The notes under the pieces: generated by a model
Database searches by the model: none
Told to the model about the DNA's origin: nothing
The model's input: the letters and a program-made list of their open reading frames with translations, nothing else
Assembly (NCBI RefSeq): GCF_947491715.1
Contig: NZ_CANLKR010000012.1
Span: 44,501 to 108,500 of the forward strand
From: an uncultured Shewanella sp.
Lineage (GTDB): Bacteria > Pseudomonadota > Gammaproteobacteria > Enterobacterales > Shewanellaceae
Direction of reading: 5' to 3'
Length of the DNA: 64,000 nucleotides
Translations under genes and position numbers: made by a program
Shown here: one piece after another, positions 19,255 to 50,066 of the stretch
Layout: each line of letters opens with the position of its first letter
Numbering within the stretch: the stretch's first letter is position 1

Positions 19255-19360
19255 ATTGATGACTTCCTTAAAACTCAGGTCTAAATGATCCAAGGCCGTG
19301 GTATGTAGTGGTGCAGTAATGATAACGACCAGCCCATAAAAAAAGGGTTATTGGCTAGGC

Positions 19361-20246: not shown

Positions 20247-20307
20247 TCGATTATGACAAATATTTATGGTTTAAGGTTTAAGGTTTATGCTTATCTTTAT
20301 TAAGCGC

Positions 20308-20751: not shown

Positions 20752-20873
20752 TTTTAACGACTTCCTTTTGTTTTTATTATTTATTTTTATTGCTATTTTC
20801 AATATGGTACGGGCCGTTGATACTCGCTATTTTCATTTTAGTATTCAGTAATCAATCAGCTCTAGTATCCACT

Positions 20874-21488
20874 TTACCCTTTAACCGCCACTAACACACC
20901 TGTCGACACCATAATACTACCCGCTGTTTTATTGATCACATTGAAAGTATTAGATGATTTAAAAATGCCTTTGGCTTTCACTGCCATAAACGCATAGCCT
21001 AAGTTAACGCTGCCAAACGCAACCGTTGCCGCCAACATAATGAGTCCCGCATCAAAAACAGACACGGTATCAATACTGACAAATGCTGGAAAGAAACCCA
21101 CATAAAATAAAATCGCCTTTGGATTTCCTAAGGTGACGATTAATCCCGTCATAAAACTTGATTTCAATGATGATTGAGCATTTGCTTCCACATCCATTTT
21201 GGTGGCCCTTGATGAGAGTAATTTATACCCCAACCAGATAAGATACACTGCGCTTACATATTTTATAACGATAAACGCTGTCCCCATGACTGTCGATAAA
21301 GCCGATAAGCCAAATAGTGCCAACACGATAAAAAGGTAATCGGCCACGAGCATTCCCATTGTCATCGCGACTCCCCGAGAAAACCCCGACGAGAAAGCAC
21401 GAGCAATAATTGCAAACACACCTGGACCTGGCACAATCGCCAACAGTAACATGGCCCCCATTAACGTGAATAAACTGATAATAGACAT
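20874..21488 (-). CDS. LysE/RhtB-family exporter
   Basis: PGPGVF, LGNPKAILFY and six TM segments. Confidence 0.8.
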   Translation of the reverse strand: MSIISLFTLMGAMLLLAIVPGPGVFAIIARAFSSGFSRGVAMTMGMLVADYLFIVLALFGLSALSTVMGTAFIVIKYVSAVYLIWLGYKLLSSRATKMDVEANAQSSLKSSFMTGLIVTLGNPKAILFYVGFFPAFVSIDTVSVFDAGLIMLAATVAFGSVNLGYAFMAVKAKGIFKSSNTFNVINKTAGSIMVSTGVLVAVKG

Positions 21489-21566
21489 GACAGTATTCCT
21501 TTTTACATCTTATTATATTGATAATATAGAAAATAATTTCAAGGATTATTCGCAAAAAACACGCAT

Positions 21567-21965
21567 CTACTCTTTGATAAGATACATGCCTTCACTCTCA
21601 GGACGGCTCAGTTTAAAACCAAACTTTTTATATAGCGCGGGCACATCAGCCATTAAGGTGATATAGGCTGTCGGCAACGCTTCACGCTCAAGATAATCCA
21701 TAATCGATTGCATGATCAAGCGGCCAAAACCCTGACCTTGATAATCAGGATCCACGGCAACATCGACAATATCGAAATTCAAGGCGCCATCTCCCACTAC
21801 TCGCCCCATGCCCACTGTCAGCTCGTTAATCACAATCTGCACACCAAATAAACTCTTGGGTAGCCCTTTTTCAACCGCTTCATACAGGCGTGGGCTTAAT
21901 CCTGAGACTTGCCTTAATCGAATAAAGTCATTCACTGAAGCGACCTGTTCTACAACTTGAATCAT
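21567..21965 (-). CDS. GNAT family N-acetyltransferase
   Basis: VAVDPDYQGQGFGRLIM motif A. Confidence 0.8.
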   Translation of the reverse strand: MIQVVEQVASVNDFIRLRQVSGLSPRLYEAVEKGLPKSLFGVQIVINELTVGMGRVVGDGALNFDIVDVAVDPDYQGQGFGRLIMQSIMDYLEREALPTAYITLMADVPALYKKFGFKLSRPESEGMYLIKE

Positions 21966-22000
21966 AATATTTCCCTATATTTTATAATATGTTAATTCCA

Positions 22001-22807
22001 TTAAACGATAATTTTACCTTTCAATGTGGTGACGGCTTGCCCAATCAAATTCACGTGTTCATTCGACAAGACTTCCATTTCAACAACGCCACCGCGTTGA
22101 GATGCTTGATAGCCCTTTAAACACGCTTTATTCAACTTTTCTTGCCAATAAACAGCAAGAGCGCAATGGGCTGACCCCGTTACAGGATCTTCATTGACCC
22201 CCACCCAAGGGGCAAAATAGCGAGAGCAAAAATGGTAGTCAGTGTTTGCAGCATCATTTTTCGCTGTCACAATAACACCTCGGCCCGGTAGCCGCTTTAA
22301 ACTCTCAAAATTCGGTCTCAATGCCCGCACGATCTGCTCATCATTCACTTCAATTAACCCTTTACCATCAAAACCGCAGTAACTGACCACTTGATCAGAT
22401 TGAATACCTAACGAAGTCATTAACACACCATCATTATCAAGTGAAAAATCAAGCCTCGGGGCCGGAAACAACATGGAAATGCTATCAGGCTTAATCGCTA
22501 CCTTTAAAGGCCCTGATAGAGTATTAAAACGCATTTCATCACCGACATCGAGCACACCGGTTTCCTGTAAAATATGCACCACAGATAAGGTACCATGGCC
22601 ACATAAACTCACTTCCACTTGCGGCGTAAACCAACGTAAAGTGAGATCACTTAAAGAGAGAAAAGCCGTTTCCGACACCGCCATTTCAGCAGCGATTGCC
22701 AGCATTAGACGCTCATCTAACCCTTTTTCGGTGATACACACGCCTGCAGGATTACCTTTAAATCGTTCAGATGTAAAAGCATCTACTTGGTAAATGGCTA
22801 ATTCCAA
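22001..22807 (-). CDS. PhzF-family isomerase-like protein
   Basis: IYQVDAFTSERFKGNPAGV, SETAFL, LCGHGTL and PVTGSAH motifs. Confidence 0.85.
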   Translation of the reverse strand: MELAIYQVDAFTSERFKGNPAGVCITEKGLDERLMLAIAAEMAVSETAFLSLSDLTLRWFTPQVEVSLCGHGTLSVVHILQETGVLDVGDEMRFNTLSGPLKVAIKPDSISMLFPAPRLDFSLDNDGVLMTSLGIQSDQVVSYCGFDGKGLIEVNDEQIVRALRPNFESLKRLPGRGVIVTAKNDAANTDYHFCSRYFAPWVGVNEDPVTGSAHCALAVYWQEKLNKACLKGYQASQRGGVVEMEVLSNEHVNLIGQAVTTLKGKIIV

Positions 22808-22877
22808 TATGATAACTCCAAGCTATTAATCGAGTGAATAAACAACAAACACAAGGCACTTCAAAACAAAGGTAAAC

Positions 22878-24302
22878 TTAACGCTTTCGATGATCCAATG
22901 CTCTTCTTCTAGCCCGTTTTTTCTGGGCCGCTTTAGTATTTTTATAATCCACAGGTGTGCTTTTAGTGAGATCCGGCTCAAAACCCGTCAGCCATTGCTG
23001 GGGCAGACGGGTATCTAATAAGGTTTCAATTTGTTCAAGCAATAAGGCATCTTCTTCGCTGTATAAGGTGATCGCTCGACCTGTGTTACCCGCTCGCCCC
23101 GTCCGCCCAATTCGATGCACATAATCCTCAGCATTAAATGGCAGTTCATAATTAAAAACGAATGCAAGGGCATTGATATTCAACCCCCGCGCCGCCACGT
23201 CAGTGGCGACCAACACTTGAGTGTCAGCTTGTTTAAATTGCGTTAATACTTGCTCGCGCACACTTTGTGATAAATCCCCATGAAGTGCTTGTGCTAAAAT
23301 GCCTTGTTGTTGTAATGCCTGCACTAATGTATCCACCCCTTGCTTCTTTCGGCAAAAGATTAACGCTTGCGGCGCACGATCAAGATGATCCACTGGATTA
23401 TTTAGCTTGATTTTATTAAGCAAATTTTTATTAAACAGGTTTTTATTCAGCAAGTGACTAATAATGGAGATTTTTTTATCGCTATCCACTTGATAAACAA
23501 CTTGCTCAACTTGACTCGCCACCCTATTTTTTTCAGCCATTTCTATCAATGTTGGCTTATTAAGCCATTTTTGACTCAAGCTATAGACAGACGGATTAAA
23601 GGTGGCTGAAAACAGTAAGGTTTGCCTCTTTTTATTCATAGCCGTTTTAGGCAAGGCTTTAAGGATCTTATTAATATCGTCTTTAAAACCTAAATCCAAC
23701 ATGCGATCCGCTTCATCCAGCACCAAAAAGTCCAAGGCATTGAGCTGTAAATTGCCTCTGCTCAGATGATCCAATAACCGGCCCGGTGTTGCCACAATAA
23801 TATCAATGCCCTCAGCTAACACTGCTGCCTGCTTATCAATACTGACGCCACCATAAATGAGTGCACTGCGTAAACCTAAGCCGCCTTGATGCTCAGCGCT
23901 ATCCTTCACTGTTGATGACTCTGGATCTTGCGCATAAGTATCAACACTCTTATGGACTTGCATAGCCAATTCTCTTGTCGGCGTTAAGATTAATGCACCA
24001 ACTGCCTGTTTCTTTTGCTGGCACTCGCCGTTCACACCGTGACTAATACTCTTATCAGCACTATTATCAACACTTTTATCAGCACTACTATCAAAAGCTC
24101 TGCGGGACGAGACTAAATGTTGCAAAATCGGTAACGTAAAAGCGGCGGTCTTTCCCGTGCCCGTTTGGGCTTTTCCCATCACATCCTGCCCTGCTAATAT
24201 GGCAGGAATAGCCAATGATTGAATAGGTGTTGGCTCCGTATAACCCAAAGATGATAAACGACTGACAAGCTCAGGCATTAACCCTATTGATGAAAAAGAC
24301 AT
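22878..24302 (-). CDS. DEAD-box ATP-dependent RNA helicase (RhlE-like) with low-complexity insertions
   Basis: Q-motif, AQTGTGKT, PTRELA, DEAD, SAT, HRIGRTGRAG and a basic C-tail. Extra repeats DKSVDNSADKS and NKNLFNKNLLNK. Confidence 0.9.
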   Translation of the reverse strand: MSFSSIGLMPELVSRLSSLGYTEPTPIQSLAIPAILAGQDVMGKAQTGTGKTAAFTLPILQHLVSSRRAFDSSADKSVDNSADKSISHGVNGECQQKKQAVGALILTPTRELAMQVHKSVDTYAQDPESSTVKDSAEHQGGLGLRSALIYGGVSIDKQAAVLAEGIDIIVATPGRLLDHLSRGNLQLNALDFLVLDEADRMLDLGFKDDINKILKALPKTAMNKKRQTLLFSATFNPSVYSLSQKWLNKPTLIEMAEKNRVASQVEQVVYQVDSDKKISIISHLLNKNLFNKNLLNKIKLNNPVDHLDRAPQALIFCRKKQGVDTLVQALQQQGILAQALHGDLSQSVREQVLTQFKQADTQVLVATDVAARGLNINALAFVFNYELPFNAEDYVHRIGRTGRAGNTGRAITLYSEEDALLLEQIETLLDTRLPQQWLTGFEPDLTKSTPVDYKNTKAAQKKRARRRALDHRKR

Positions 24303-24381
24303 AAAAGTTGACCAATAAAAAAGCGCTAAAAAATAACGCTTATTCTATCATTACAATCTACAAAGGCATAAATATTGAGGA

Positions 24382-24726
24382 TTAAAAACTCGCACCATCG
24401 ACTTTTCTCACCGCAATGCTTTGAACCTGTTCGCTTTCAAATAAGCGGAAATTGACTCCCACACGGTCCATCTCGGCCTTAGGACGACAGGTATAATGCG
24501 TGATGCACCCACATTGACTACAACGATGAAAATCAATATATTCATCTCCCCAGCAATAGGTTTGCAAAGGCTCAGTGTTGACAGTAACAGAAACTTGGGC
24601 TTGTGGGTAATAGCCCCAAAGAGCGGCCGTTCTTCGGCAAATTGAGCAATTGCAACTTGTTAGGGTGTCGGGCAATGCGTCGACTTCAACGTGAACATTG
24701 CCGCAATGGCAGGAGGCTGTTGGCAT
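24382..24726 (-). CDS. GFA/CENP-V family protein
   Basis: CHCGNV...CNCSICRR...CSQCG. ATG at 24726. The ORF is open to 24777. Confidence 0.75.
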   Translation of the reverse strand: MPTASCHCGNVHVEVDALPDTLTSCNCSICRRTAALWGYYPQAQVSVTVNTEPLQTYCWGDEYIDFHRCSQCGCITHYTCRPKAEMDRVGVNFRLFESEQVQSIAVRKVDGASF

Positions 24727-24801
24727 ATTAATTTCCTTATTCACTGATATTATTAAGAGTCCTTTAGTATTCGGCACTCATTTACAATAAACGAAAAACA
24801 A

Positions 24802-24829
24802 CTGTATATACATACAGCTTCAGAGTCAA
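24802..24829 (-). promoter_or_regulatory. LexA (SOS) box CTGTATATACATACAG overlapping a sigma70-like promoter
   Basis: Perfect CTGT-N8-ACAG at 24802-24817. On the minus strand TTGACT (24824-24829) lies upstream and the box covers the spacer and -10 region. It faces the GFA gene. Confidence 0.6.
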
Positions 24830-24883
24830 TAATGATTTTACTTTTACCTGCTGCATCACAATCTTGCCCCCTATTGAATCGAT

Positions 24884-25246
24884 CTAGCTTGCATGAGCCC
24901 ACACAGCAAACTCATTACCGCTTGGCTCAGTGAAGTGAAAGCGTCTGCCTCCAGGAAATGAAAATATCGGTTTAATCACCTTTCCACCTGATTTAATAAT
25001 TTTATCTTGCGTTTCTTCTAAGTTTTCACTAAAAAACACCATCAAGGCACTGCCATTAGTTGTTGATGCATGTAACTCTGAACGAAAGAAGCCTCCTCTA
25101 AGGCCCGCATTATCAAAGGCAGTATAATCTGGCCCAAAATCTTCAAAAGTCCAAGCAAATACTTGACTAAAAAAAGCCTTGGTCGCCGCTAAATCTGTTG
25201 CTGAAAACTCAATATAATCCATTTTCTCATGTTGACTCATATTCAA
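24884..25246 (-). CDS. VOC/glyoxalase-bleomycin-resistance fold protein
   Basis: About 120 aa with a VOC-type pattern (YIEFSATDLAATKAFF...GGRRFHFTEPSGNEFAVW). 4-nt overlap with the upstream gene. Confidence 0.7.
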   Translation of the reverse strand: MNMSQHEKMDYIEFSATDLAATKAFFSQVFAWTFEDFGPDYTAFDNAGLRGGFFRSELHASTTNGSALMVFFSENLEETQDKIIKSGGKVIKPIFSFPGGRRFHFTEPSGNEFAVWAHAS

Positions 25247-25809
25247 TCCTTTTCGTTATTATCACGCACTTGAATCATGTTATTAAACACGTCAAAAAGT
25301 GCTTTTCCTTCAGGCCAATCACCAATATTGACATCGGTGTTTATATGCCCTAGTGCACCAACAGGGATCAATTCAGCCTGCCAATGCTTCGCAAAAAAAT
25401 GAGCCTGTTCGATACGACAGTAGGGATCATTACTGCTGGCACACATCACGCAAGGGAAAGGCAACGGCGTTAATGGTGGCGTGCTATAACCTGTAATAAC
25501 CTTCGGAAAGTCATCTCGCTGGACATCCGGCACTGCCACCATAAAAGCCCCTTTTATCATTGCCGCTTTCTCTGGATAACGTTGGCACCAGTGTGCAACC
25601 GTGCTTCCGCCTAAACTGTGAGTGATAAACATTGTCGGCCCTGATACACTGTCGACTAACTTATTCAATGTCGACACCCACTTATTGCAATCTGGATAGG
25701 CCCAGTCTTCTTGTTCCACCCAATAACTACCAACAAATTCTTCAAACCAAAATCGCTGCCAATGCCCTGCTAGAGAATTAAGATAGCCGGGTACAAATAT
25801 AATATTCAT
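25243..25809 (-). CDS. alpha/beta hydrolase, YdeN/RBBP9-like serine hydrolase
   Basis: IIFVPGY, THSLGG nucleophile elbow and a distal GHIN histidine. Confidence 0.7.
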   Translation of the reverse strand: MNIIFVPGYLNSLAGHWQRFWFEEFVGSYWVEQEDWAYPDCNKWVSTLNKLVDSVSGPTMFITHSLGGSTVAHWCQRYPEKAAMIKGAFMVAVPDVQRDDFPKVITGYSTPPLTPLPFPCVMCASSNDPYCRIEQAHFFAKHWQAELIPVGALGHINTDVNIGDWPEGKALFDVFNNMIQVRDNNEKD

Positions 25810-25904
25810 TATCCATCTTCCTGAAGCATATTGATCTTTAAAGCTTAAACGATATTCAAAGTGTATCTTTTGTATTCAAGGAGTCGAGGGGTTAGCCTAC
25901 ACTT

Positions 25905-26624
25905 TTATTTTGGCGGCATCATTTGAAAGGATTGTGCAAATGCCATCAAGCTTAACCTTGGTTTATCCTCATCCGTCTTAAGCCATTGCTCACCAAACAA
26001 AAGTACTCTTGTTTTTTCATTAATGATAATAAACTGGTTGAGAAGTTCATTACCTTCAGATGATTGACTAAATAACCATTCTCCCCCATTAAGCCCATTC
26101 ACTTCCACCGATTTTTTTGAGATTAACCTAGGCTCCAGTTGAGATTGCCCTAATTGTGCCAAGTAGTTGTCGAACAAAATCTGCACTGCTTCATCTTGGG
26201 TGTATTGTTGACTTTGTAGTGAAATCTTTTTCACAATCAACATTCGATAAATCGACCTGTCCATCGCCGCAGGGCCAAAACTGACATAATCGCTCTCTTT
26301 ACTAAACTGCTCTTTCATTTGCATATAACGATATTCATATGTCTCTTCTTTATGGGGAAGCGCGATTGAAAAATCACCGTTAGGAGAAAAATAACGATCT
26401 TGACGAATGTCTCCATCAGTAAACTTAGGAGCAGGAAATAACCCGGCAATATCCCCCCCAGTTGTAGAAGAGCAAGCTGAAATAAAGACAAACATGCTCA
26501 ATAATATGACTAATCGCAGAGGCATGAATAAAGCAGATACAAGCACAGAAACAAGATTGTTAGACCAAACCATAAAAAATCCTTTTAACTGAGTGCTATT
26601 ATGATGAGGATAAAGTGTAGTCAA
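25905..26624 (-). CDS. hypothetical lipoprotein
   Basis: FVFISACSS lipobox. The start is uncertain (26624 or 26573). Confidence 0.45.
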   Translation of the reverse strand: MTTLYPHHNSTQLKGFFMVWSNNLVSVLVSALFMPLRLVILLSMFVFISACSSTTGGDIAGLFPAPKFTDGDIRQDRYFSPNGDFSIALPHKEETYEYRYMQMKEQFSKESDYVSFGPAAMDRSIYRMLIVKKISLQSQQYTQDEAVQILFDNYLAQLGQSQLEPRLISKKSVEVNGLNGGEWLFSQSSEGNELLNQFIIINEKTRVLLFGEQWLKTDEDKPRLSLMAFAQSFQMMPPK

Positions 26625-26712
26625 TGAGGAATGAGAACGCTAAATAATACGCAGACAGATAGATCAATGATTGCTCGCAGACAATAATATTTTTAAATTA
26701 TAAATAAGTAGG

Positions 26713-27108
26713 TTACAAAAAACGAATAACAGTGTAATACAAAGCACTACTCTGTATATCTTTCGCTGAATATTCCCACTGAGACACAGCTTTAACCGCT
26801 GCAAAACCAAACCGTGTTTCTGAAGCATTGTAAATTTTGACGTTTTGAGGAACGAATAATTCACCTTGAGAATTAGGCTTTATTGATAATGTAAAGGTCA
26901 CCGCAGCACAACCAGGCTCATGGGGCGGTCGAAATACCTTGTTTGAATGCGGGGCCTTAAAAGGAATTTCAGGGTAAACAGCCAACACTTTAACCTTTGG
27001 ATGATCAGCGCGCATAGCGTTAATATTATCGATATTGCCACACATTGCTTCTCTAGCAGCAGCTTGTAAACTCATCAAACAAAGCAAAAAAACAAGACAA
27101 TATTTCAT
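26713..27108 (-). CDS. small secreted protein with a TonB-C-terminal-like domain
   Basis: Signal peptide, then YPEIP...GCAAVTFTL...FGFAAVKAVSQWEY resembling the TonB_C fold pattern. Confidence 0.4.
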   Translation of the reverse strand: MKYCLVFLLCLMSLQAAAREAMCGNIDNINAMRADHPKVKVLAVYPEIPFKAPHSNKVFRPPHEPGCAAVTFTLSIKPNSQGELFVPQNVKIYNASETRFGFAAVKAVSQWEYSAKDIQSSALYYTVIRFL

Positions 27109-27187
27109 CTACACATACCCAGTCACCGATAATTAAATGAGCTCAAACATACTCAAAAACAAGACATTAGTATCAAGTCATATTGAT

Positions 27188-27456
27188 ATATACCCAAACC
27201 ACTTGAAAGTGCATGTTTTCAGAGCCCGTAAAAAGGCTTAATTCAAGGCGCATTATTGAAAGAATGCTTATTGCCTTTTGAGGTGATGCAACGTAGAAGT
27301 TAGTCTTTTTACAGGCTCCCAACGGGCTGGTTTAAAACACTTTTATTCTGCGTTATTGAATATCAACTTAGAATAACTAAGCCCTCAACTCAATGCCTTG
27401 CCTAAACGCGTTTTAATTCCAGCTGAATCCTGCATCTTCAAGTGGTTTGGGTATAT
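27188..27456. mobile_element. MITE-like non-coding element with 20-bp perfect terminal inverted repeats
   Basis: ATATACCCAAACCACTTGAA (27188-27207) and its exact reverse complement TTCAAGTGGTTTGGGTATAT (27437-27456). Its internal modules are shared with the element at 16961-17259. Confidence 0.6.
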
Positions 27457-28142
27457 TAACTTATATTACTAAATGAACGTCTCTCCGTAATCATACACTT
27501 ATTCAACCTTTATCAGCAATCAAACTTGATTTTTATTAAATCAATTTCATTAAAATAAGGCATCCTTAATATAATACCGCTAAGCAACTCATTTTATCCT
27601 AGTCTTTTTTACTTGATGCACAACAATAGTCATGCTATGAATTCCTCAACCAATACAAGCAAATTCACGCCACTAGCTGGTGCCATTAACAAAAAAATCC
27701 TGATGAGTTATCACCTCCCCCCTTCATGTAAATCCCTTTTACCAAAAAGCAGGTCCATGGCATTGAGGCACCTTACCTTGGCAGTGAAACCTCGTGATTA
27801 CTTAAGCTTTTCAAATACCAAAACATCGGCTAACTGAGATAAAAGCAGAGCACCTGATAATGACACATTATCAACAGTATCAAGTCGCCTATTGAATTTA
27901 GACACATATTTAACCATTGCGTATTAAATATCGTCACCAGCAAATTGATTGATTTCCTCTCAAATGGCTAAACACGTTACCCATTTTTCTGTGGGAAGAT
28001 ATCACTTTAACGAAGGTTATGCCGATCCTACGGTGCTCCAAAACCCTTACAATATTAGGCTATAAACGCCCAAGTCACGACAACTAATATAACACTCAGC
28101 CATACTATGGCGCGGATCTTTTAATAGCATGGGCATACACGG

Positions 28143-28628
28143 TTAACGTAAACATTTTGACATAGGCACACACTCAAGCTTCACCCCTGAAGGGTGCAAC
28201 CAAAAGCTGGGTTCTTGCGCAATAAAGCCAAGGCTCTGATAAAAGGGAACGGCATTTAACGAAGCCGACAAAGATAATGCCTGCACACCTGTTTCTATCG
28301 CCTGTTGTTGTAGTGCAAGCGTCAATATTTTCCCAATGCCCCTACCATGATGAAAAGGGTCAACAAACACAGATTCAAGCGATTGTTTATCGCTATCGAT
28401 AAAACCAAAGCCTAAAACCTTACTTTTTTCTTCATATACAATAGCCTTGAGTGTAACCAAAATATGAGAAAAATCTTTTGGCATAGGTGAATCAGCCCAA
28501 GCGCTAACCTTCTGAGCTGCATAAAATTGAGCACAACTTTTTAAAATAGCCTCTGTTCGAATAGCCCAAACTCTCTCGACATCTTGATGTGTTGCAAAGC
28601 GGATACAAGGGTTAACTTTAACATCCAT
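28143..28628 (-). CDS. GNAT family N-acetyltransferase
   Basis: VFVDPFHHGRGIGKIL motif A. ATG at 28628. Confidence 0.8.
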   Translation of the reverse strand: MDVKVNPCIRFATHQDVERVWAIRTEAILKSCAQFYAAQKVSAWADSPMPKDFSHILVTLKAIVYEEKSKVLGFGFIDSDKQSLESVFVDPFHHGRGIGKILTLALQQQAIETGVQALSLSASLNAVPFYQSLGFIAQEPSFWLHPSGVKLECVPMSKCLR

Positions 28629-29098
28629 GAAAAACCTCTTAGATTCCCTATAAGAATCCATATACTTCAATGACAAAACCAATCTATATTAAAACACAAT
28701 CGCAGTCCACCACCGTCTAGCCCTAAATGAAGAATATCTAATCATTTATTAATATATTGAATTTAAATGAAGTATTTAAATTCGTTGACACTCGTTACCC
28801 CGAATTCAGGTTTATTAAGCCAGACTTGACAGAAGAACAATCAATTTAAAGTTTTTATCTAAACTGTTTAACCTCACTATTGTAAGTGCAGGTTATGTAA
28901 ACCAACTCGCATCAATTAAATACCAAGTTAATCATATTAAGTAACACTGATATTGATATTACCCTACGTTTAAAAATACTTTTTATTAACAATAATACTT
29001 ATATGAGTAAATTACGTTGTTTATTAACTTTAATAAATATAATTTAATATCGATTTTAATAAAGCGTCATAAAGAAAAAATAAGTAAAAGAGGTGAGA

Positions 29099-33107: not shown

Positions 33108-34172
33108 ATGCAACACTCAGTGATGTTCTCCCTACTCCTTTTTCTTAACCAATTCATTTTCTCTGCTTTTGCTGAAGACTCCCCCTTAACGGTTGTCTCT
33201 TTTGGCGGTGCTTATGGTGCCACACAGAAAAAACACATGATCGATCCCTATGTGGCCAAAACAAAAAAAACAATATTATTTGACAATTATTCTGGGGGTG
33301 TGGCAGAAATGAAGGCGCAGGTCGAGGCCAATAAAATTCTTTGGGATGTGGTCGATATTGAAGCCATTGATTTAGAGCGCGCCTGCAGTGAAGGGTTACT
33401 TGAAGTGATCCCCAAAAGCATTTTACACAAAGGCACTAATGGTACCCCCGCCGAGCAAGATTTCTTACCCGAAGCCCTAGCGAACGAGTGTGGTATTGGG
33501 ATCATGGTTTGGGCTAATATTTTTGCCTTTAATACAAAAACTATCGGAAAAACGCCCCCCACCAGCATTAGTGATATCTTTGATACACAGAAAATTCCCG
33601 GTAAACGTGCGTTTCGTAAGCGCCCACAAGTCAACTTAGAGTGGGCACTGCTGGCCGATGGCGTCCCCAAAGAAAAAATCTACCAAATCCTAGCCACAGA
33701 AAAAGGCCAACAAAGAGCCTTTGCTAAACTCGATACCATTAAAAAGGACATTATCTGGTTTAACAGTTGGTCTCAAGCCCCCCAACTGCTCAATGATGGC
33801 GGTGCCGTTATTGTTCAATCTGCCAATGGCCGCATTTATGATGCCATAGCAAAAGATAAAAAGCCTTTTCAAATAGTCTGGGATGGCAATTTATATGATC
33901 TGGATGTGTGGTCGATTGTCAAAGGCACTCAACATAAGCAAGCCGCCTTGGATTTTATCGCATTCGCCACAAATTCCAAGCCCTTAGCTGGTATGGCTGA
34001 TATTGCTTACGGTCCCACCAGAAAATCATCAATGGCCTTTGTTTCATCTGATGTACTCCCATTTTTACCCAGCTCACACATGCCAAAAGGGATAAAAGTC
34101 GATTCGCTTTTTTGGAGTGATTATGGTGAGTCTTTAGGCGTCAAATTCAACCAATGGTTATTGGAGAAATAG
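33108..34172 (+). CDS. ABC transporter periplasmic substrate-binding protein (PotD/PotF-like), copy 1
   Basis: Signal peptide and family-1 SBP size. Operon context. Confidence 0.75.
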   Translation: MQHSVMFSLLLFLNQFIFSAFAEDSPLTVVSFGGAYGATQKKHMIDPYVAKTKKTILFDNYSGGVAEMKAQVEANKILWDVVDIEAIDLERACSEGLLEVIPKSILHKGTNGTPAEQDFLPEALANECGIGIMVWANIFAFNTKTIGKTPPTSISDIFDTQKIPGKRAFRKRPQVNLEWALLADGVPKEKIYQILATEKGQQRAFAKLDTIKKDIIWFNSWSQAPQLLNDGGAVIVQSANGRIYDAIAKDKKPFQIVWDGNLYDLDVWSIVKGTQHKQAALDFIAFATNSKPLAGMADIAYGPTRKSSMAFVSSDVLPFLPSSHMPKGIKVDSLFWSDYGESLGVKFNQWLLEK

Positions 34173-34340: not shown

Positions 34341-35411
34341 ATGGCACATATTTTTTTCAAAGTCATTGCTATTCTCTTTATTCATTTATTTGGCCTTATC
34401 TCTGTCAGTTTCGCAGAAGAAAACGAGCTCACTGTCGTTTCTTTTGGAGGTGCTTATGGAGCCATACAGAAAAAATACATGATTGATCCTTATATGGAGC
34501 AAACTCAAAATACCTTATTATTTGATAGCTATTCTGGTGGCGTGGCAGAAATTAAGGCGCAAGTAAAAGCCCAAAAAATACTATGGGATGTCGTGGATAT
34601 TGAAGCCATTGATTTAGAACGTGCTTGCAGTGAAGGTTTGTTAGAAGTGATCCCAAGGAGTATTTTACCCAAAGGCAGTAACGGCACAGCTGCTACACAA
34701 GATTTTTTACCTGACGCTTTAACCAATGAATGCGGAGTCGGTGTTATTATTTGGGCAAATATTTTTGCTTTTAACACGAAAACCATTGGCAACATTCATC
34801 CAAAAACAATCAAAGATATCTTCAACACCAAAAAAATCCCCGGTAAACGCGCCTTACGTAAACGACCACAAGTGAATTTAGAGTGGGCGCTACTTGCTGA
34901 TGGTGTACCTAAGGAAAAACTCTATGAAGTACTGGCTACAGAAGCAGGTCAACAAAGAGCCTTTGCTAAACTCGATACCATAAAAGATGACATTATCTGG
35001 TTTAACAGCTGGTCTCAAGCCCCTCAACTGCTCAATGATGGTGGTGCAGTGATCGTTCAATCTGCAAACGGGCGTATTTTTGATGCGATAACAAAAGATA
35101 AAAAGCCTTTTCAAATCGTCTGGGATGGCAATTTATATGATCTTGATGTGTGGTCAATTGTCAAAGGCAGCGAACATAAAAAAGAAGCGCTGAATTTTAT
35201 TGCTTTTGCAACAAGTACTCGACCATTAGCAGGATTGGCCAATATAGCATATGCCCCCACCAGAAAATCCTCAATGGCTTACGTCTCTTCCAGTATCTTG
35301 CCCTTTTTACCGACCTCACATATAAAACAAGGTCTCAAAGCCAATTCTCTCTTTTGGAGTGATTATGGTGAATCTTTAGGCGTCAAATTTAACCAGTGGT
35401 TATTAAAATAA
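34341..35411 (+). CDS. ABC transporter periplasmic substrate-binding protein, tandem paralogue (copy 2)
   Basis: Collinear with copy 1 and identical at most positions by eye (for example ILWDVVDIEAIDLERACSEGLLEVIP and SWSQAPQLLNDGGAVIVQSANGRI). Confidence 0.75.
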   Translation: MAHIFFKVIAILFIHLFGLISVSFAEENELTVVSFGGAYGAIQKKYMIDPYMEQTQNTLLFDSYSGGVAEIKAQVKAQKILWDVVDIEAIDLERACSEGLLEVIPRSILPKGSNGTAATQDFLPDALTNECGVGVIIWANIFAFNTKTIGNIHPKTIKDIFNTKKIPGKRALRKRPQVNLEWALLADGVPKEKLYEVLATEAGQQRAFAKLDTIKDDIIWFNSWSQAPQLLNDGGAVIVQSANGRIFDAITKDKKPFQIVWDGNLYDLDVWSIVKGSEHKKEALNFIAFATSTRPLAGLANIAYAPTRKSSMAYVSSSILPFLPTSHIKQGLKANSLFWSDYGESLGVKFNQWLLK

Positions 35412-42945: not shown

Positions 42946-42996
42946 GTTAAATGCTTAAGCTTTATTAACAGCTTAACCACTAGCAAGAATGGTCAC
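42946..42996. repeat. left copy of an approximately 48-bp direct repeat
   Basis: GTTAAATGCTTAAGCTTTATTAACAGCTTAACCACTAGCAAGAATGGTCAC compared with the copy at 44335-44383. Confidence 0.7.
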
Positions 42997-43078: not shown

Positions 43079-43885
43079 TTACAATTTAACGGATCTTACC
43101 GCTATCATGGTTTGCATATATTCCTCAATAAGAAAACGAGGACTCGGGTGATCATCCTCATAAAATCCTGATACTACAAATCCAGCCTCTATCTGTTGAC
43201 CAATCTGCTGTGTCAATGTATGACCAAAAACTAATGCTTCTCCATTTAACCGTTTCTCTTTATAGTCCTTTTCTTCCAAGCTACTAACGTCAGAATAAGG
43301 CAACACATATTTAGGCTTCAGTAATCCTTGTTCAATTGTTGGCGTATCTTTATCAAATATAAAAAGAACCGGATTATAAAAACTGGTCAGCAATACACCA
43401 CTTTGTTTCAACACACGGTAACACTCTCGCCACAGTGACTCCAAAGCAGGAATGTATAAATTTGAAATAGGTGAAAGGATAAAATCAAAGGTGTTATCAC
43501 TAAAAACGGAAAGATCGCGCATATCACCTTGAATGGTTTTAAGCGTCAATCCATCCCGTTGAGCGATGAAATCATCTTTTTCCAACTGACCTTTAGATAT
43601 ATCGTAAACGGTAACGTCTGCACCTGCAGCAGAGAGAACAGGCGCTTGCTGACCTCCGGCGGATGCAAGGCAAAGAATTTTCTTTCCTCTTATATCCTTT
43701 GGTAACCAATCATCATCTAAGGCTTTCTTGGTGATATGAACATTCCAATGCCCTTGTTTCGCTTGCTCGATAATCTCTTGTGATACAGGCCTAGACCAAG
43801 CCCCATTTGCTTGCGCATAACCATCCCAAACAACACCGTTGTGCTCAACGACATATTTATCTTTATCTAAATTATTTTCAGTCAT
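43079..43885 (-). CDS. class I SAM-dependent methyltransferase
   Basis: Rossmann-type motif I ILCLASAGGQQ, an acidic residue after beta-2 (VYDIS), and post-I/II motifs. Confidence 0.65.
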   Translation of the reverse strand: MTENNLDKDKYVVEHNGVVWDGYAQANGAWSRPVSQEIIEQAKQGHWNVHITKKALDDDWLPKDIRGKKILCLASAGGQQAPVLSAAGADVTVYDISKGQLEKDDFIAQRDGLTLKTIQGDMRDLSVFSDNTFDFILSPISNLYIPALESLWRECYRVLKQSGVLLTSFYNPVLFIFDKDTPTIEQGLLKPKYVLPYSDVSSLEEKDYKEKRLNGEALVFGHTLTQQIGQQIEAGFVVSGFYEDDHPSPRFLIEEYMQTMIAVRSVKL

Positions 43886-43995: not shown

Positions 43996-44039
43996 TTAAA
44001 ATAGAGTTAAAATAGGGCCAAAATAGGGTTAAAATAGAC
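43996..44039. repeat. four tandem 11-bp iteron-like repeats (TTAAAATAGRG)
   Basis: TTAAAATAGAG TTAAAATAGGG CCAAAATAGGG TTAAAATAGAC, contiguous with an 11-bp period. Confidence 0.8.
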
Positions 44040-44334: not shown

Positions 44335-44383
44335 GTTAAATCCTTAAACTTTATTAACAACTTAGCCACCAGCAAAGGATCAC
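44335..44383. repeat. right copy of the approximately 48-bp direct repeat
   Basis: GTTAAATCCTTAAACTTTATTAACAACTTAGCCACCAGCAAAGGATCAC. Most positions are identical to the left copy. Confidence 0.7.
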
Positions 44384-44486: not shown

Positions 44487-45323
44487 CTAACTGGTTTCAC
44501 TTTCAGTTGCTAACTTTACCCGATTAAATAAACATAGTTGTTGTTTACCAGATGCTATTAACTTTTGCTCTAGAAATCTTGTTACATCTGCATCAAGATC
44601 ATCACTATTAATTTTTTCTACAAGCATATCGAGACCATATAGTTCAGAATGAGTTTCTTTACTCTCTAATAAATAAATAATTAAAATCGCTACCGAATTG
44701 GAATACTTCGAAACCCAATCCTTTTTACTCAAACTGTACAAGAGGTTAGAATGAGTAAGATCTGATACAGGCATAAGTTTTATCAGGCTAACCATCTTCT
44801 CGAAAAGATCTGGAATATTCTTAAGTAAACTCAACATAGCTCCAGCTTCCTTAGCATCAAAGAGCATTGGTTTTCCCTTAATACGGTTCTGCCAATATGG
44901 TTTAAACCAACTTATCCATATATCTGACTGACGAATAGATTTCTGCTTAGAGAAAAAACGAGACAAGTGACAAGCGAAAATGACCTTATGCTCACCTGAC
45001 ATACCATCTGATAATAACTTGGGTAACCAATCTATATGTGGATTTTCAACACACCAAAATGCAACTGCAACATAGTGCTCAATAAACTTAGCTTCTTTCC
45101 CAGGCAAAAGTTCTTCAAACATTCCTCTCATTTTTTCAAAGTACGGTCTAACACTGGCAAACAAAGTAGCGCTTATACCACTACTAGCCAATAATCCATG
45201 CCAAGCTTGCTCAGTTCTTTTAGATGTTGACTCAAGTAATTGTAATATATGCTCCACCGTCCATTCAGCATCTACATTGTAAAGAAAATTAATCTGCCGA
45301 CAGAGTAATGCTAATTCAGACAC
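44487..45323 (-). CDS. hypothetical all-helical protein, possibly the 3' remnant of a larger gene
   Basis: The ORF opens with GTG three codons after an in-frame stop, with no SD, and the first ATG comes only after about 60 codons. No motif recognised. Confidence 0.35.
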   Translation of the reverse strand: MSELALLCRQINFLYNVDAEWTVEHILQLLESTSKRTEQAWHGLLASSGISATLFASVRPYFEKMRGMFEELLPGKEAKFIEHYVAVAFWCVENPHIDWLPKLLSDGMSGEHKVIFACHLSRFFSKQKSIRQSDIWISWFKPYWQNRIKGKPMLFDAKEAGAMLSLLKNIPDLFEKMVSLIKLMPVSDLTHSNLLYSLSKKDWVSKYSNSVAILIIYLLESKETHSELYGLDMLVEKINSDDLDADVTRFLEQKLIASGKQQLCLFNRVKLATESETS

Positions 45324-45559
45324 CCAAAATTAATTTCTTACGACACAGCCCAAAATCCACGGGCTACAAAGCGACTCTTTGAGCTATCTCAGTGACATCA
45401 AGGTGAATTTAACATCATCATCGTCAGTAATGATATAAAAATAACTGATCCATATGGGTTTCAGACAAGAGTCAATCGCAGAGCAATATTTTAAGCGTGT
45501 TCAGAGCGATATAAAGATGGGAGGACACATGATTAGAACTCAATACTCATCAAAAGCCA

Positions 45560-46579
45560 TTAAGCACTATCAAGCCAACGATGACAATTCCCAGCGCCTT
45601 GTCGCCGCTTTCGCTCTAAATGAGCACAATAGGCATCCAGTTCTTGTAAGCTACCTGCTGGGCCTTTAAATAAACGAGTAAACTCTGTCGTCAATTTAAG
45701 CCAGTTTTCTTGGGGAATATTCAATCTATTGAGAATAGGCATAGCTAACTCACTGATTGAACCTCGCTTATCGTTTCGCTTATTATGAAGAATTAGTCGC
45801 CCCGTTTCATCTACTAACTTCAAATAATCACCCAAATGAAAGTGTAATCCTTTTGGCATATCAAGCCTTTCATTACCTACAAACGCCAATAAATTTGCAG
45901 GTTGTTCACCTTTAAACGCAGCCTTTATGCGCCTTTGAATACTGGTAAAATCTGACTGCTCTGGCGTGTCTGCAATTTTTGCGCGAATAGGATTTAAATC
46001 GACATAGGCCATACAAGAAAGTACCGCCGCCTCATCTAATAATGCTTGGCTTTTAAACCGTCCTTCCCAAAACCGTCCACTACACTTGTCCTCAAAATTC
46101 GCTTTTCTTGCAATAGGTTCATTTAGTGCTCTCATGAACCAGCTTATATCACTTAGGCGACTTCGGTACTTTGCAATCGTTTTTGATAATAAAACCATTT
46201 CATGAGGCTCTAATGACACATCATTAGTCAATTTTTGGGTAATATCAGTTCCATTGAATAACTGATGCCAGCGCTCGGCAACTTCAAGTTCAGACCAAGA
46301 GTTTGCTTTATAAATATCCACATTTAATACTAAATGCAGATGATTTGACATCACCGCATAGGCACAGATATCAATGGCAAAAACGTCTGCAAGCTCAAGG
46401 ATTCGGTCTTCAACCCATTCACGTCGATGCTCATAAGATTGGCCTGTGTAATCATCAACACCACACAGGTAAGCCCGCCTAACACAGCGAGATACACAAT
46501 GATAAAAGGAAGTGTCTTCCAAGCTCACTATCGCTTTCCTTGATGTCGGCATAAATCCATCCATTGATAGCTTATTCAC
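45560..46579 (-). CDS. Y1 HUH (IS200-like, COG1943-type) transposase-like protein, long form
   Basis: HUH motif SNHLHLVL and catalytic-Tyr context AYVDLNPIRAKI. N-terminus TSFYHCVSRCVRRAYL is typical of this family. Confidence 0.7.
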   Translation of the reverse strand: MNKLSMDGFMPTSRKAIVSLEDTSFYHCVSRCVRRAYLCGVDDYTGQSYEHRREWVEDRILELADVFAIDICAYAVMSNHLHLVLNVDIYKANSWSELEVAERWHQLFNGTDITQKLTNDVSLEPHEMVLLSKTIAKYRSRLSDISWFMRALNEPIARKANFEDKCSGRFWEGRFKSQALLDEAAVLSCMAYVDLNPIRAKIADTPEQSDFTSIQRRIKAAFKGEQPANLLAFVGNERLDMPKGLHFHLGDYLKLVDETGRLILHNKRNDKRGSISELAMPILNRLNIPQENWLKLTTEFTRLFKGPAGSLQELDAYCAHLERKRRQGAGNCHRWLDSA

Positions 46580-46619
46580 TCATCAAAGCCTAGTTTATGG
46601 TCATTAATAAGTCAAATAA

Positions 46620-47450
46620 CTATGGGTGTCTAAATTGATCCGATAACTTGCCATGAATACGCAAAAGATAAGACCATGGGTCTTCTGACTCTATACGATG
46701 AACTGCTCGATGACAGTTTGCACATATGATTGCAAGATCAGATTCCTTAGTTTTTTCACCAGCCTTTATTTTATTCAATGGTTTTTTATGATGTGCCTCT
46801 GCATAACTAAAACCATACTTGGGCAGAAAGTCATAGCCGCACACTTCACAAAATAAAGAGCCATTTTCCTTAACAAATCTCTCTTTTGCTTTTTTTACCA
46901 ACAGGCTATCTCGTTCCCTTACTTTGTGAGTCCTAAGGCGCGTTTTACTTTCATCTGTTTCATACTCATCATCTTCAAGGTCGAGTGTTTCTTCATGCCA
47001 CAACGACCAAATTTTGCTAAATTCGCTTATTGTTAACTTGAAGTTTGTACCTTGTCTTGCAGTTAAGAGCTGCATCTTTGACAGCTCTTTATCTCTGAGC
47101 AGCAGGCTCGACTCGACCAGTCCCTTGTTAATATCAAGCCGAGTTTCCTCGATCCTTATTCCAACCTTAATCTCAGAAACCTCTCTTTTCTCCCAGTACT
47201 CCTCAAGTAAGAATTCAGGGTGAAGCACTTTGTTTTTATCTGTGGGAGCTTCAGTTATTTTTCCGTACGCAACTAGCCCATACGGATCTTTAGATTTACC
47301 TTTAGAACGCCATATGAAAACTCTGTCACCAACTAGCATTTCAGCTTGATGCTTTCGGTGCTTAACAGCCCAGTAGATGTAGTCGAAGTCTTTAAGATAC
47401 GTATCTATATCAAAGTCTTCTCTATTTCCTCTAAATATCCAGTCGGTCAC
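46620..47450 (-). CDS. EVE (PUA-like) domain fused to an HNH nuclease; candidate modification-dependent (type IV) restriction endonuclease
   Basis: The N-terminal pattern WIFRGN...YWAVKH...VGDRVFIW...GLVAYGKI resembles EVE domains. The C-terminal CEVCGYDF...AHHKKPL...CANCHRAVH is an HNH zinc-finger nuclease motif. GTG start preceded by GGAGAG. Confidence 0.65.
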   Translation of the reverse strand: MTDWIFRGNREDFDIDTYLKDFDYIYWAVKHRKHQAEMLVGDRVFIWRSKGKSKDPYGLVAYGKITEAPTDKNKVLHPEFLLEEYWEKREVSEIKVGIRIEETRLDINKGLVESSLLLRDKELSKMQLLTARQGTNFKLTISEFSKIWSLWHEETLDLEDDEYETDESKTRLRTHKVRERDSLLVKKAKERFVKENGSLFCEVCGYDFLPKYGFSYAEAHHKKPLNKIKAGEKTKESDLAIICANCHRAVHRIESEDPWSYLLRIHGKLSDQFRHP

Positions 47451-47464
47451 AATCTCTCCGCAGA

Positions 47465-47528
47465 GTTATAACGCACGTGTCACGGGGACCGAGCGTAGCG
47501 AGGGATCCCGTGGACACGCTTGTTAAGT
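47465..47528 (-). other. integron attC site (end of the cupin cassette)
   Basis: Minus strand reads ACTTAAC-AAGCGTGTCCACGGGATCCC...GGTCCCCGTGACACGTGC-GTTATAA: RYYYAAC and GTT cores flanking an imperfect palindrome with bulges. The gene's stop codon lies inside the first core. Confidence 0.75.
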
Positions 47529-47897
47529 GGTTTTTTTTGATTGGCTTGGATATGAAACTTCTAATACCAAACATTCTTCTTCACACACAAATGGCCCATG
47601 AATCTCTCCAGGAGGCCTACTAGCAAAATGGCCCGCCTCCAGCCAAACATCAAAGGCCTCATCATACAAACGACCCGACACTATATAAATTTCTTCTGGG
47701 TATTCATGTGATTTACCACCAAAGCTTTTTGTGTCAGCTCCTTTTTTGAATCTTGTTAATCGTGTGTAATCCCCTGTATTTAGATCCATTGCCAAAGTAA
47801 GCTCTTCCAGCATACCATTTGTTCCATCAATGGGTTTCCATTTATCTTTGTTTTCACTTGCAAGAACATTCCAGTATGTGGCTGTATCTTTTCCCAT
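47523..47897 (-). CDS. cupin-domain protein (integron cassette 2)
   Basis: Small beta-barrel pattern (HEYPEEIYIVSGRL...PPGEIHGPF), bounded by attC sites. Confidence 0.6.
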   Translation of the reverse strand: MGKDTATYWNVLASENKDKWKPIDGTNGMLEELTLAMDLNTGDYTRLTRFKKGADTKSFGGKSHEYPEEIYIVSGRLYDEAFDVWLEAGHFASRPPGEIHGPFVCEEECLVLEVSYPSQSKKTT

Positions 47898-48017
47898 GCA
47901 TCCCCCTCTTATTACTCAGTACTTTTCCATTCCATACCAGAATAAATTTACAACAATGCAAAGTTCTTGACTATCGTTTTTTAAATTTTCATGCAGGATT
48001 TATATTCGCTAATTACC

Positions 48018-48079
48018 ACTTAACGCCAAGCACACCGGCTGCGCGTCTAGCGCAGTCCGAGTGGTGCGCCTTGTTATAT
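48018..48079 (-). other. integron attC site (end of the LysE cassette)
   Basis: Minus strand reads ATATAAC-AAGGCGCACCACTCGGACTGCG...CGCAGCCGGTGTGCTTGGC-GTTAAGT. It starts 6 nt after the LysE stop and is an imperfect palindrome with extrahelical bases. Confidence 0.75.
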
Positions 48080-48085
48080 GGCTAT

Positions 48086-48697
48086 TTATCGGCTTGAGGC
48101 TGCTAAACCAATACCAAAGCTAATGAAAATACTACCACTGATTTTGTTAAATAATGATTTATTATTATGAGGAAGTAGTTTTGATTTTGCTATAACTGCA
48201 AATATGGCATACAACATATGAATAATTATTACTAAAATACTAAACGTAACTGCTAGTATAAATAATTGACTGCTGTAATCTTGAGTTTTATCAATAAATT
48301 GAGGAAGTATTGATATGAAGAATATTATTGCTTTTGGGTTCGATGTGGAAACCATAAAACCTTCAAAAAAACACTTTAAGGTTGAAGTATTTGTGGTGTT
48401 CATTGATGTTTTAATTTCAGATTTATCTCGCAACATTTTCAACCCTAGATAGACCAAATAAGCTGCACCAACAAACTTTAAAATTGTAAATGCTACTACT
48501 GACTGTTCTAACAATACTCCTAAGCCAGTAGCCGAAATAAGGGCGATTAAAAGAATCCCAAGAGCAACTCCCAAAATTCCAGAAATGGCCTTCACTAACC
48601 CTTTTTGAATTGAGTTATTTATAGTCAGCAATACTGCTGGCCCAGGTAATGAAATGGTAGCCATAGCTACACCTATATACACTAGATAAATATCCAT
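48086..48697 (-). CDS. LysE/RhtB-family exporter (integron cassette 1)
   Basis: PGPAVL, TSNPKAIIFF and six TM segments. It is the first gene after the attI junction. Confidence 0.75.
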   Translation of the reverse strand: MDIYLVYIGVAMATISLPGPAVLLTINNSIQKGLVKAISGILGVALGILLIALISATGLGVLLEQSVVAFTILKFVGAAYLVYLGLKMLRDKSEIKTSMNTTNTSTLKCFFEGFMVSTSNPKAIIFFISILPQFIDKTQDYSSQLFILAVTFSILVIIIHMLYAIFAVIAKSKLLPHNNKSLFNKISGSIFISFGIGLAASSR

Positions 48698-48728
48698 TCT
48701 TACTCCTTAGGATAGATTTTTTGGGAGT

Positions 48729-48738
48729 GCCATATAAC
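48729..48738 (-). other. probable attI/first-cassette recombination junction
   Basis: Plus-strand GCCATATAAC here is the exact reverse complement of GTTATATGGC at 48073-48082 in the LysE attC. This is expected if the cassette was inserted at G/TT. Confidence 0.55.
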
Positions 48739-49073
48739 AGCTTATTCAACAGCAGCAGGATAATCTTCCAGACTGCATACTATTTTTAAGCTAGAGTATA
48801 CTACTAACCCATTGTTATACAATCATTATCAATCAAAAGTTAACTATTTACTAACTAGAAACCAAGAAAAAAACATGCAGCAGTGTTTACGAGGTCTGCA
48901 TATCACTTTTTAACATATAATTAAAAGTTAAATTATATCAATTAATTGTGTAACTTTTCTACTTTATACTCAATATTATCGCTGCATCGAATATTGCTAT
49001 CCCTATGATAATGACCTTATGGTAAATGAGTCGCGCATCTTTTTTCTTGCACAATATTCAAAACCAGCTATAA

Positions 49074-49089: not shown

Positions 49090-49107
49090 TTGTATATTGG
49101 TAATCAC

Positions 49108-50066
49108 ATGGGCCAGTTACAGTATTTAGAAGCGATACGAACGGAAATAAGAATACGTCATTATAGCTATCAAACGGAAAAATCCTATCTCTATTGGAAT
49201 CGATATTTTATTCGTTATTCAACGATCCGCCATGGCTCAGAAATTACCAGCGCATTAATAGAGCGGTTTCTTTGTTATTTAGCTAAGCAACGTCAGGTTT
49301 CCGCAAATACGCAAAAGCAAGCCTTATGCGCCATTGTATTTGCATGTCGATATGTATTAAAAATAGATACTGAACACTTAATCTTTCCTTATGCAAAAGC
49401 GCCAAAAAAATTACCACAAGTATTATCAAGTGAAGAAGCTAAGTTGATAATCGATCAATTACCCGGTTATCATCACCTGATTGGGCGATTCTTTTCGGCT
49501 CAGGACTACGATTAAAAGAAGCACTACGGATCCGAATAAAAGACATTGATTTCGGAGAAAAGTCGATTTTTGTGTATCAAGGAAAAGGTCAAAAAGACCG
49601 TGTCTGCATGTTACCTCAAACAATAATATCTCAATTAAACGTCCAAATTACACACGTTAAAGCAATTCATGATCATGATCTAGCAGCAGGATTTGGGCTA
49701 GCATCATTACCCATTTCACTTATGCGCAAATATCAAAATAGTGCCGCACAGTTTCATTGGCAATACCTTTTTCCTGCGAGTCGCCGCTGTGTACACCCTA
49801 GTGATCATTATATTTGTCGTCATCACATACATCCCACCGCATTTTCACGTGAATTAAGACAAGCAACAAAACGAGCTCAGATCAATAAACGTGTCACAGC
49901 ACATACTTTCCGTCATTCGTTCGCGACATGTTTATTACGCAAAGGCTATGATATCCGTACAATTCAAGAAATGTTAGGTCACACTGATGTTAAGACAACA
50001 CAAATATACACCCATGTCATTGGTGGACATTATAGCGGTGTGATAAGCCCTCTTGATCATCAATAA
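49108..50066 (+). pseudogene. intI: integron integrase, disrupted by a one-base frameshift
   Basis: N-terminus IRIRHYSYQTEKSYLYWNRYFI. IntI-specific insertion [25 protein letters not shown]...RHHIHP. Catalytic HTFRHSF, LGH and IYTHV. The frame changes in the T-run at 49492-49495, and the alternate frame reads [20 protein letters not shown]. Confidence 0.85.

Follow-up and report, generated by a model that had tools for sequence, protein, structure and literature searches.

Type IV restriction enzymes of EVE-HNH architecture, some predicted and others tested, are a class known from the literature (PMC6765204, PMC7897488, 10.1101/2020.08.06.240630). Three of them, TspA15I, VcaM4I and CmeDI, cut DNA containing 5hmC or 5mC and restrict phage T4gt (PMC6765204). 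In VcaM4I, it is the EVE domain that flips out the modified cytosine, for which it has a hydrophobic pocket; as long as no DNA is bound, this domain and a linker helix keep the nuclease blocked (PMC7897488). Integrons, too, have been reported to carry streamlined type IV restriction genes, as stated in PMC12409362, which cites Darracq et al. (10.1101/2024.07.02.601686). Here, we describe an EVE-HNH gene found in a stretch of 64,000 nucleotides from an uncultured Shewanella sp. (hereafter, the window), where it lies in the last cassette of a chromosomal integron that is falling apart.

Results

A conserved gene encoding an EVE-HNH protein

The EVE-HNH open reading frame (Table 1) starts with GTG, and its ribosome-binding site, GGAGAG, is located at 47454-47459, 3 nt 5′ of the start codon; this start context, RBS included, is shared with the homologues. 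An initial annotation made from the sequence had described a 276-aa protein with its own GGAGAG site, and this is what we find, though the native length of the protein is 269 aa. Database searches retrieved 57 relatives, at most 91% identical and nearly all with both Pfam domains, and an exhaustive profile search returned 551 representative clusters at E≤1e-30, mostly of 265-290 aa. The dN/dS of the gene against its two closest relatives is 0.08-0.09. The relatives, the clusters and this ratio indicate that the ORF is not a product of chance: it is a conserved protein-coding gene under purifying selection. Its coding sequence contains no internal stop or frameshift, and all 19 invariant columns of the family are intact in a 37-sequence alignment for which the window protein itself served as the reference.

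Table 1. Coordinates of the features at the EVE-HNH locus, listed from the integrase gene towards the Dsr1 fragment (positions in the window).
Feature	Position	Strand	Basis or remarks
intI, integron integrase gene, with one frameshift	49090..50066	+	Pfam domains, three-frame translation, TIGR02249
Pc-like promoter candidate, TAGAAA-18-TATAAT with extended TG	48932..48961	-	Consensus scan
attI/cassette 1 junction, GTTATAT	48732..48738	-	Read from the sequence
Cassette 1: LysE-type translocator (ORF 48086-48697) and attC1 (48018-48079)	48024..48737	-	
Cassette 2: ChrR-like cupin (ORF 47523-47897) and attC2 (47466-47528)	47472..48023	-	
Cassette 3 as surviving: TTATAAC, RBS GGAGAG and EVE-HNH coding sequence to codon 269	46643..47471	-	Comparison of homologous cassettes
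EVE-HNH ORF	46620..47450	-	276 aa (269 native and 7 junction-encoded); AlphaFold mean pLDDT 81.3
EVE (PUA-superfamily) domain, predicted modified-base reader	47007..47441	-	aa 4-148; Pfam PF01878, Foldseek, profile search
HNH nuclease core with Cys4 zinc site	46698..46850	-	aa 201-251; Pfam PF01844, profile match to EcoKMcrA
11 nt of unknown origin (CGGATCAATTT)	46632..46642	-	Between the cassette breakpoint and the terminal repeat of the element
RAYT-like element, 1314 bp, with a 330-aa Y1-transposase-like gene (45560-46552)	45318..46631	-	Inverted repeats, NCBIfam/Pfam
Dsr1-type sirtuin defence gene, C-terminal fragment (DUF4020)	44487..45323	-	Pfam DUF4020, PADLOC, NCBIfam

Domain architecture and predicted structure

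The same annotation had read an EVE/PUA-like domain in the N-terminal ~150 residues and a CxxC...HH...CxxCH HNH nuclease at the C-terminus. Both readings are borne out by Pfam, which places the two domains above their curated cut-offs, with 35.2 bits for EVE over aa 4-148 (PF01878, cut-off 23) and 35.6 bits for HNH over aa 201-251 (PF01844, cut-off 21.4). The HNH motif of the window protein reads C201xxC204...H220H221...C243-A-N245-C246-H247...H251, and its nine numbered residues (C201, C204, H220, H221, C243, N245, C246, H247 and H251) are invariant across 37 homologues. When compared with the PDB, the family profile matched the HNH domain of EcoKMcrA (6ghc) at E = 3.4e-6, with CxxC, HH and CxxCH aligned and all metal and zinc residues in register with the McrA active site; this match spans query residues 188-263 only, nothing similar being detected outside the HNH region. 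The profile also matched the EVE structures 2ar1 and 2g2x by sequence. As for dedicated defence models, PADLOC gave a weak type IV match (mREase_IV, E = 2.9e-4, 18.7 bits) that covers aa 175-252, that is, the HNH part, and no full-length match.

In the AlphaFold model (mean pLDDT 81) both domains are confident and the acidic linker between them, aa 155-179, has low confidence. For the N-terminal domain, Foldseek searches of the PDB placed EVE structures at the top, the first matches being 2ar1, 5j3e (human THYN1 with 5mC DNA), 2g2x, 2eve and 1zce, with YTH and ASCH readers ranking lower among the structural neighbours. The HNH part of the model matched EcoKMcrA, and VcaM4I (6yex) aligned to the whole protein over 292 columns with a Foldseek probability of 1.00 and 13% identity. 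Neither phmmer nor the family profile found VcaM4I in the PDB, even at E≤10.

Invariant aromatic and polar residues occur in four candidate pocket segments: W4/R7-N9, Y26-W27, W47-R48 and R132-F137. The base-flipping pocket of VcaM4I includes P24, W82 and Y130, and the position that we tentatively equate with W82, through a weak HMMER alignment to 2ar1, is an invariant glycine (G97) in the family. Because of this residue, the pocket of the window protein, and hence its ligand, may differ from those of VcaM4I.

A small, decaying chromosomal integron

The gene resides in a small, decaying chromosomal integron of three cassettes that adjoins ruvCAB; the chromosomal location follows from the flanking genes, which are ruvCAB, yebC and aspS. 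The integrase gene lies upstream of the cassette array and is divergent from it. It is split into two ORFs in different frames, 49090-49515 and 49572-50066, that carry Phage_int_SAM_4 and Phage_integrase, the N- and C-terminal tyrosine recombinase domains. Three-frame translation revealed a single frame change beside a GGG run (~49482-49484; region 49480-49486), and once conceptually repaired, IntI scored 366.8 bits on the TIGR02249 'integron integrase' model (cut-off 265). The frameshift could be genuine and inactivate the gene, or it could be a sequencing error in a homopolymer. Between intI and attI, the best promoter match of the region (10/12) is directed into the array; since promoter-like sites in this region are not more numerous than in shuffled sequences, it is only a candidate Pc.

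The attC sites were defined by reading the sequence and then folding it. Cassette 1, whose ORF matches Pfam LysE with 131 bits, starts with GTTATATGGC, which is exactly complementary to GCCATATAAC on the R″ side of attC1, and attC1 forms a hairpin with paired R″ and R′ boxes (z = -2.4 to -3.2 vs shuffled sequence). In cassette 2, the ORF matches Pfam Cupin_7 with 39.7 bits and its stop codon, TAA, falls within the R″ box of attC2, ACTTAAC. The 5′ end of this cassette, GTTAAGTGGT, is the complement of its own R″, ACCACTTAAC, and the attC2 hairpin has the AAC and GTT boxes paired (z = -2.1 to -2.2 vs shuffled sequence). Because both attC sites fold and the first ten bases of each cassette exactly complement its own R″ side, as recombination of circular cassettes predicts, cassettes 1 and 2 are true cassettes. 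An Rfam scan of 42-51 kb yielded nothing relevant.

Cassette 3 has lost its recombination site

The R′ box of attC2, GTTATAA at 47472->47466, sets the start of cassette 3 at the TT of position 47471, so the EVE-HNH unit does begin, as had been proposed, at the crossover of the second attC, which folds. The starting sequence, GTTATAAC, is common to the window and to four homologous cassettes from Kistimonas, Alishewanella, Shewanella and V. vulnificus. The proteins of the homologues are 269 aa long and end in ...IHGKL*, the stop codon being located within the R″ box, AAGTTATAAC, of their own attC, which the homologous cassettes retain in full. Identity between these cassettes and the window extends through GGCAAGTTAT and breaks between 46643 and 46642, after GTTAT. 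Past this point, the window ORF gains seven foreign codons (SDQFRHP) and a stop; the last three of them (R-H-P) and the stop are supplied by the RAYT-like element. At the 3′ side of cassette 3 no attC of its own was found, as only GTTAT of the R″ box is left and the 80 nt that follow form no hairpin. Cassette 3 is a remnant that is no longer excisable: it is immobile because its own attC has been lost and intI is frameshifted, which leaves an intact gene stranded. In principle, a dimer interface at the C-terminus might be upset by the seven foreign residues. The earlier view of the gene as the third unit of an integron array is thus right in that the integron is a true one, with a TIGR02249 integrase, an attI and folding attC sites, and has to be corrected in that the array is degenerate, with a frameshifted intI and the unit's own attC replaced by other DNA.

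The RAYT-like element and the Dsr1 fragment

The element that follows the breakpoint is bounded by the terminal inverted repeats AGACACCCA and TGGGTGTCT. Its 330-aa protein shows partial matches to NCBIfam REP_Tyr_transpos and Pfam Y1_Tnp (RAYT/DUF1568-like), and is 100% identical to a database entry named transposase of uncultured Shewanella sp.; its relatives in Shewanella number in the thousands, often several per genome. These terminal repeats also border homologous genes at three unrelated Shewanella loci and, for this reason, the element can be regarded as a discrete mobile unit. On its other side lies what remains of a Dsr1 gene, namely the last ~278 aa: the Dsr1 models of PADLOC and NCBIfam match it only at their positions ~986-1244 of ~1250. 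The element truncates this gene on the 5′ side, which leaves a second defence-gene remnant beside the integron. Since the attC of the cassette is missing on one side and only the C-terminus of Dsr1 is found on the other, we conclude that the array is broken here by a rearrangement involving the RAYT-like element.

Two other interpretations of the junction were rejected. IS1111-attC elements target attC sites, and the RAYT-like element might have done likewise; nevertheless, 11 unrelated bases separate its repeat from the attC break, the remainder of the attC is absent from its other side, and three other copies lie at sites that are not attC (one after an Rhs gene and two intergenic). The EVE-HNH gene and the DUF4020 fragment are not the halves of one split gene either, because the homologues stop at 269 aa inside the attC and the two frames do not join. 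Also, 16 metagenome matches to a 17-mer from the end of the element were discarded as chance, with no similarity beyond the 17-mer. With regard to other elements of this kind, in Logan-assembled contigs with a transposase labelled Shewanella psychrophila a gene for an Rhs-repeat toxin runs straight into the left end, as the EVE-HNH gene does in the window (L103 1-1500), and in Shewanella eurypsychrophilus the right end is tandemly duplicated, a block of ~59 nt that includes the terminal repeat occurring twice (L105 ~2380-2500).

Relatives of the EVE-HNH gene in cassettes and in other architectures

The close homologues in Kistimonas, Alishewanella, Shewanella and V. vulnificus are all cassettes; that of V. 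vulnificus is flanked by attC sites within a cassette array, visible as a run of small genes on the same strand. More distant full-length relatives (34-42% identity) lie between attC boxes in Ignavibacteriaceae, Anaerolineaceae, Motiliproteus and Rhodanobacter, and for the relative from Marinobacter only the upstream GTT box was seen. In all, cassette copies of this family occur in at least three phyla. The copies of Veronia and Rahnella are ordinary genes, that of Rahnella being followed by a terminator-like hairpin and a T run. A search of the PLSDB plasmids gave no close homologue, the best full-length match being 25% identical.

In one relative (P0231), an EVE domain of the same subfamily is joined to an AAA_5 ATPase domain of McrB type. 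In such a fusion, EVE occupies the reader position of McrBC-type systems. Longer EVE-insert-HNH forms of the subfamily exist as well, and one relative of this EVE type is fused to NUDIX (P0262). In the window, the neighbours of cassette 3 are the cupin cassette and the transposase-bearing element, and no DNA methyltransferase family was detected adjacent to the gene or in the scanned ORFs of 100 aa or more across the 64 kb.

The V. vulnificus array that contains the EVE-HNH homologue also holds a 273-aa SRA_ScoMcrA-HNH cassette (L085 1250-2071), so that a single integron carries two different reader-HNH candidates.

Other features of the window

A 41-nt direct repeat (88% identical), at 42946-42986 and 44335-44375, brackets a SAM-methyltransferase gene (43079-43885), and is in part similar to the sequence that immediately precedes the attI junction (48735-48754, TAACAGCTTATTCAACAGCA). 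Upstream of this methyltransferase gene, the intergenic stretch 43998-44037 is built from a tandem 11-nt unit (AAAATAGGGTT-like) in three overlapping 18-nt copies. Farther away, 17314-28682 contains ~15 small genes on the same strand with cassette-like functions (three GNAT, two GFA, a cupin, LysE, glyoxalase, DUF952 and a SLATT_5 effector-like protein), interrupted by a DEAD-box helicase gene; no attC sites were seen in the intergenic regions of this run. Finally, two adjacent paralogous genes for solute-binding proteins of an ABC transporter operon, 33108-34172 and 34341-35411, are 78% identical over 300 nt, which looks like an ordinary tandem duplication.

Discussion

What might the stranded gene encode? 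The reading that we favour, and consider reasonably probable, is that of a single-chain, type IV-like, modification-dependent restriction endonuclease, intact although no longer mobile, whose most likely role is to cut modified DNA as a defence against phages. The mechanism that we propose is modelled on the characterised EVE-HNH enzymes. In incoming DNA, the EVE domain would flip out a modified base and hold it in a conserved pocket, and this binding would release or position the C-terminal, zinc-stabilised HNH domain, which would cut nearby. In the nuclease, H221 would be the general base, H220 and H251 would be metal ligands, N245 would play a structural role, and C201, C204, C243 and C246 would hold the zinc. 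Host DNA lacking the mark would be spared, and hence no partner methyltransferase would be needed. As to its expression, the gene would travel as a promoter-less cassette and be read from the integron promoter; cassette 3, the third in the array, has indeed no promoter of its own. As a speculation, the acidic linker might act as a safety catch, in analogy with the negatively charged loop of CMoRE (PMC12923530).

The initial annotation had taken the protein for a candidate modification-dependent restriction enzyme, noting that EVE-HNH fusions have been characterised as 5mC/5hmC-dependent type IV enzymes. The domain architecture and the structural match to VcaM4I speak for this assignment, and the missing sequence homology to characterised members speaks against it; because the sequence family differs from that of the characterised EVE-HNH enzymes, the specificity for 5mC/5hmC is an extrapolation. 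Indeed, as similarity to the VcaM4I group is not detectable at the sequence level, the cassette family may be an independent fusion, and its reader may recognise another mark, such as a hypermodified base from marine phages or a modified base in RNA. We regard this as unlikely. It would agree with the mere 13% identity to VcaM4I, outside the reach of HMMER, with the invariant glycine at the tentative equivalent of W82 in the 2ar1 alignment, with the presence among the structural neighbours of YTH and ASCH readers, which bind m6A RNA and other ligands, with the NUDIX fusion of a relative of this EVE type, and with the broad activity of the TspA15I group on 5hmU DNA (PMC6765204). However, the closest structures are those of EVE proteins, one of them solved on 5mC DNA, and a DNA nuclease and, in a relative, a McrB-type ATPase domain as fusion partners argue for a DNA substrate. 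If a different mark were nonetheless the target, the family would represent a class of type IV enzymes with a new specificity that integrons have spread.

The restriction enzyme that we favour could also have ceased to matter to its host, or the HNH domain could serve something other than defence. An intact coding sequence left untranscribed in a dead integron, contributing nothing to the cell, is what one could expect from the frameshifted intI, the loss of the cassette attC with an ORF that ends in foreign DNA, the adjoining Dsr1 gene that is just a fragment, and the absence of a cassette promoter, given that expression is often poor in cassettes remote from Pc (PMC12409362). Nevertheless, the gene is only ~1.5 kb from the Pc candidate, its RBS and start context are conserved with the homologues, and it has kept every invariant column of the family, free of stops and frameshifts, in the alignment that takes the window protein as reference; the dN/dS of 0.09 points in the same direction, but mostly reflects the history before stranding. 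On these grounds, we find a silent gene rather improbable. A selfish or toxic nuclease, either of homing type or as part of an addiction module stabilising the array, seems to us very improbable. HNH domains are common in homing endonucleases, a reverse transcriptase/maturase chain (6me0) weakly matches the HNH region, and toxin-antitoxin cassettes are many in chromosomal integrons according to 10.1101/2024.07.02.601686; in contrast, the cassette holds a single gene, with no intron, intein or antitoxin partner, and the layout of reader plus nuclease, the McrA-like HNH and the EVE-McrB relatives point to restriction.

The locus illustrates how a cassette gene gets fixed, its recombination site being replaced by foreign DNA that leads into a mobile element and the integrase broken. 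Beyond this locus, the family is a further concrete and widespread example in support of the view that compact anti-phage genes are stored in chromosomal integrons, and its modification specificity could serve restriction biology or epigenetic tools. The EVE-HNH architecture and the link between integrons and defence have both been published before, and the current understanding of them is unchanged by our results.

Comparison with known systems

In the literature that we searched, integron, EVE domain and HNH co-occur only in one review, which is not proof of novelty, and the window family is not among the defence systems named for sedentary chromosomal integrons in the accessible parts of the two reports concerned (Darracq et al., 10.1101/2024.07.02.601686; Kieffer et al., 10.1101/2024.07.02.601719). 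The defence cassettes of sedentary integrons resemble cassette 3 in being compact, single-gene and promoter-less, and differ from it in residing in large, active arrays, whereas the integron of the window is tiny, with three cassettes, and decaying.

With respect to the parts of the protein, the stand-alone EVE proteins and THYN1 (2AR1, 2G2X, 2EVE, 5J3E) are the best matches for aa 1-150 and lack a nuclease domain. The 5mC-dependent EcoKMcrA (PDB 6GHC) has the HNH that is closest by sequence among solved structures, and is likewise a single chain of reader plus HNH. The SRA-HNH enzymes (TagI, ScoMcrA/ScoA3IV group) also join a base-flipping reader of the PUA superfamily to an HNH nuclease; their reader, however, is SRA and not EVE, and ScoMcrA is only a marginal structural match. 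To our knowledge, the N-terminal 5mC reader of EcoKMcrA is not an EVE/PUA domain.

The whole protein compares best with TspA15I, VcaM4I and CmeDI (PDB 6YEX), single-chain proteins of ~270-310 aa with the same order of N-terminal EVE, linker and C-terminal HNH and with no partner methyltransferase, and the structure of VcaM4I aligns over the entire length of the window model. The differences lie in the sequence, since VcaM4I is 13% identical and undetected by HMMER, in the context, since PMC6765204 and PMC7897488 mention no integron for this group, and in the nuclease: the HNH of VcaM4I has a Ser before the catalytic His and an Asp replacing the last His (PMC7897488), whereas the window protein has the canonical HH...N...H and a Cys4 zinc site. 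The EVE-HNH protein of the window therefore belongs to an uncharacterised lineage that is repeatedly cassette-borne, has a McrA-like zinc-finger HNH and forms a sequence family separate from that of VcaM4I.
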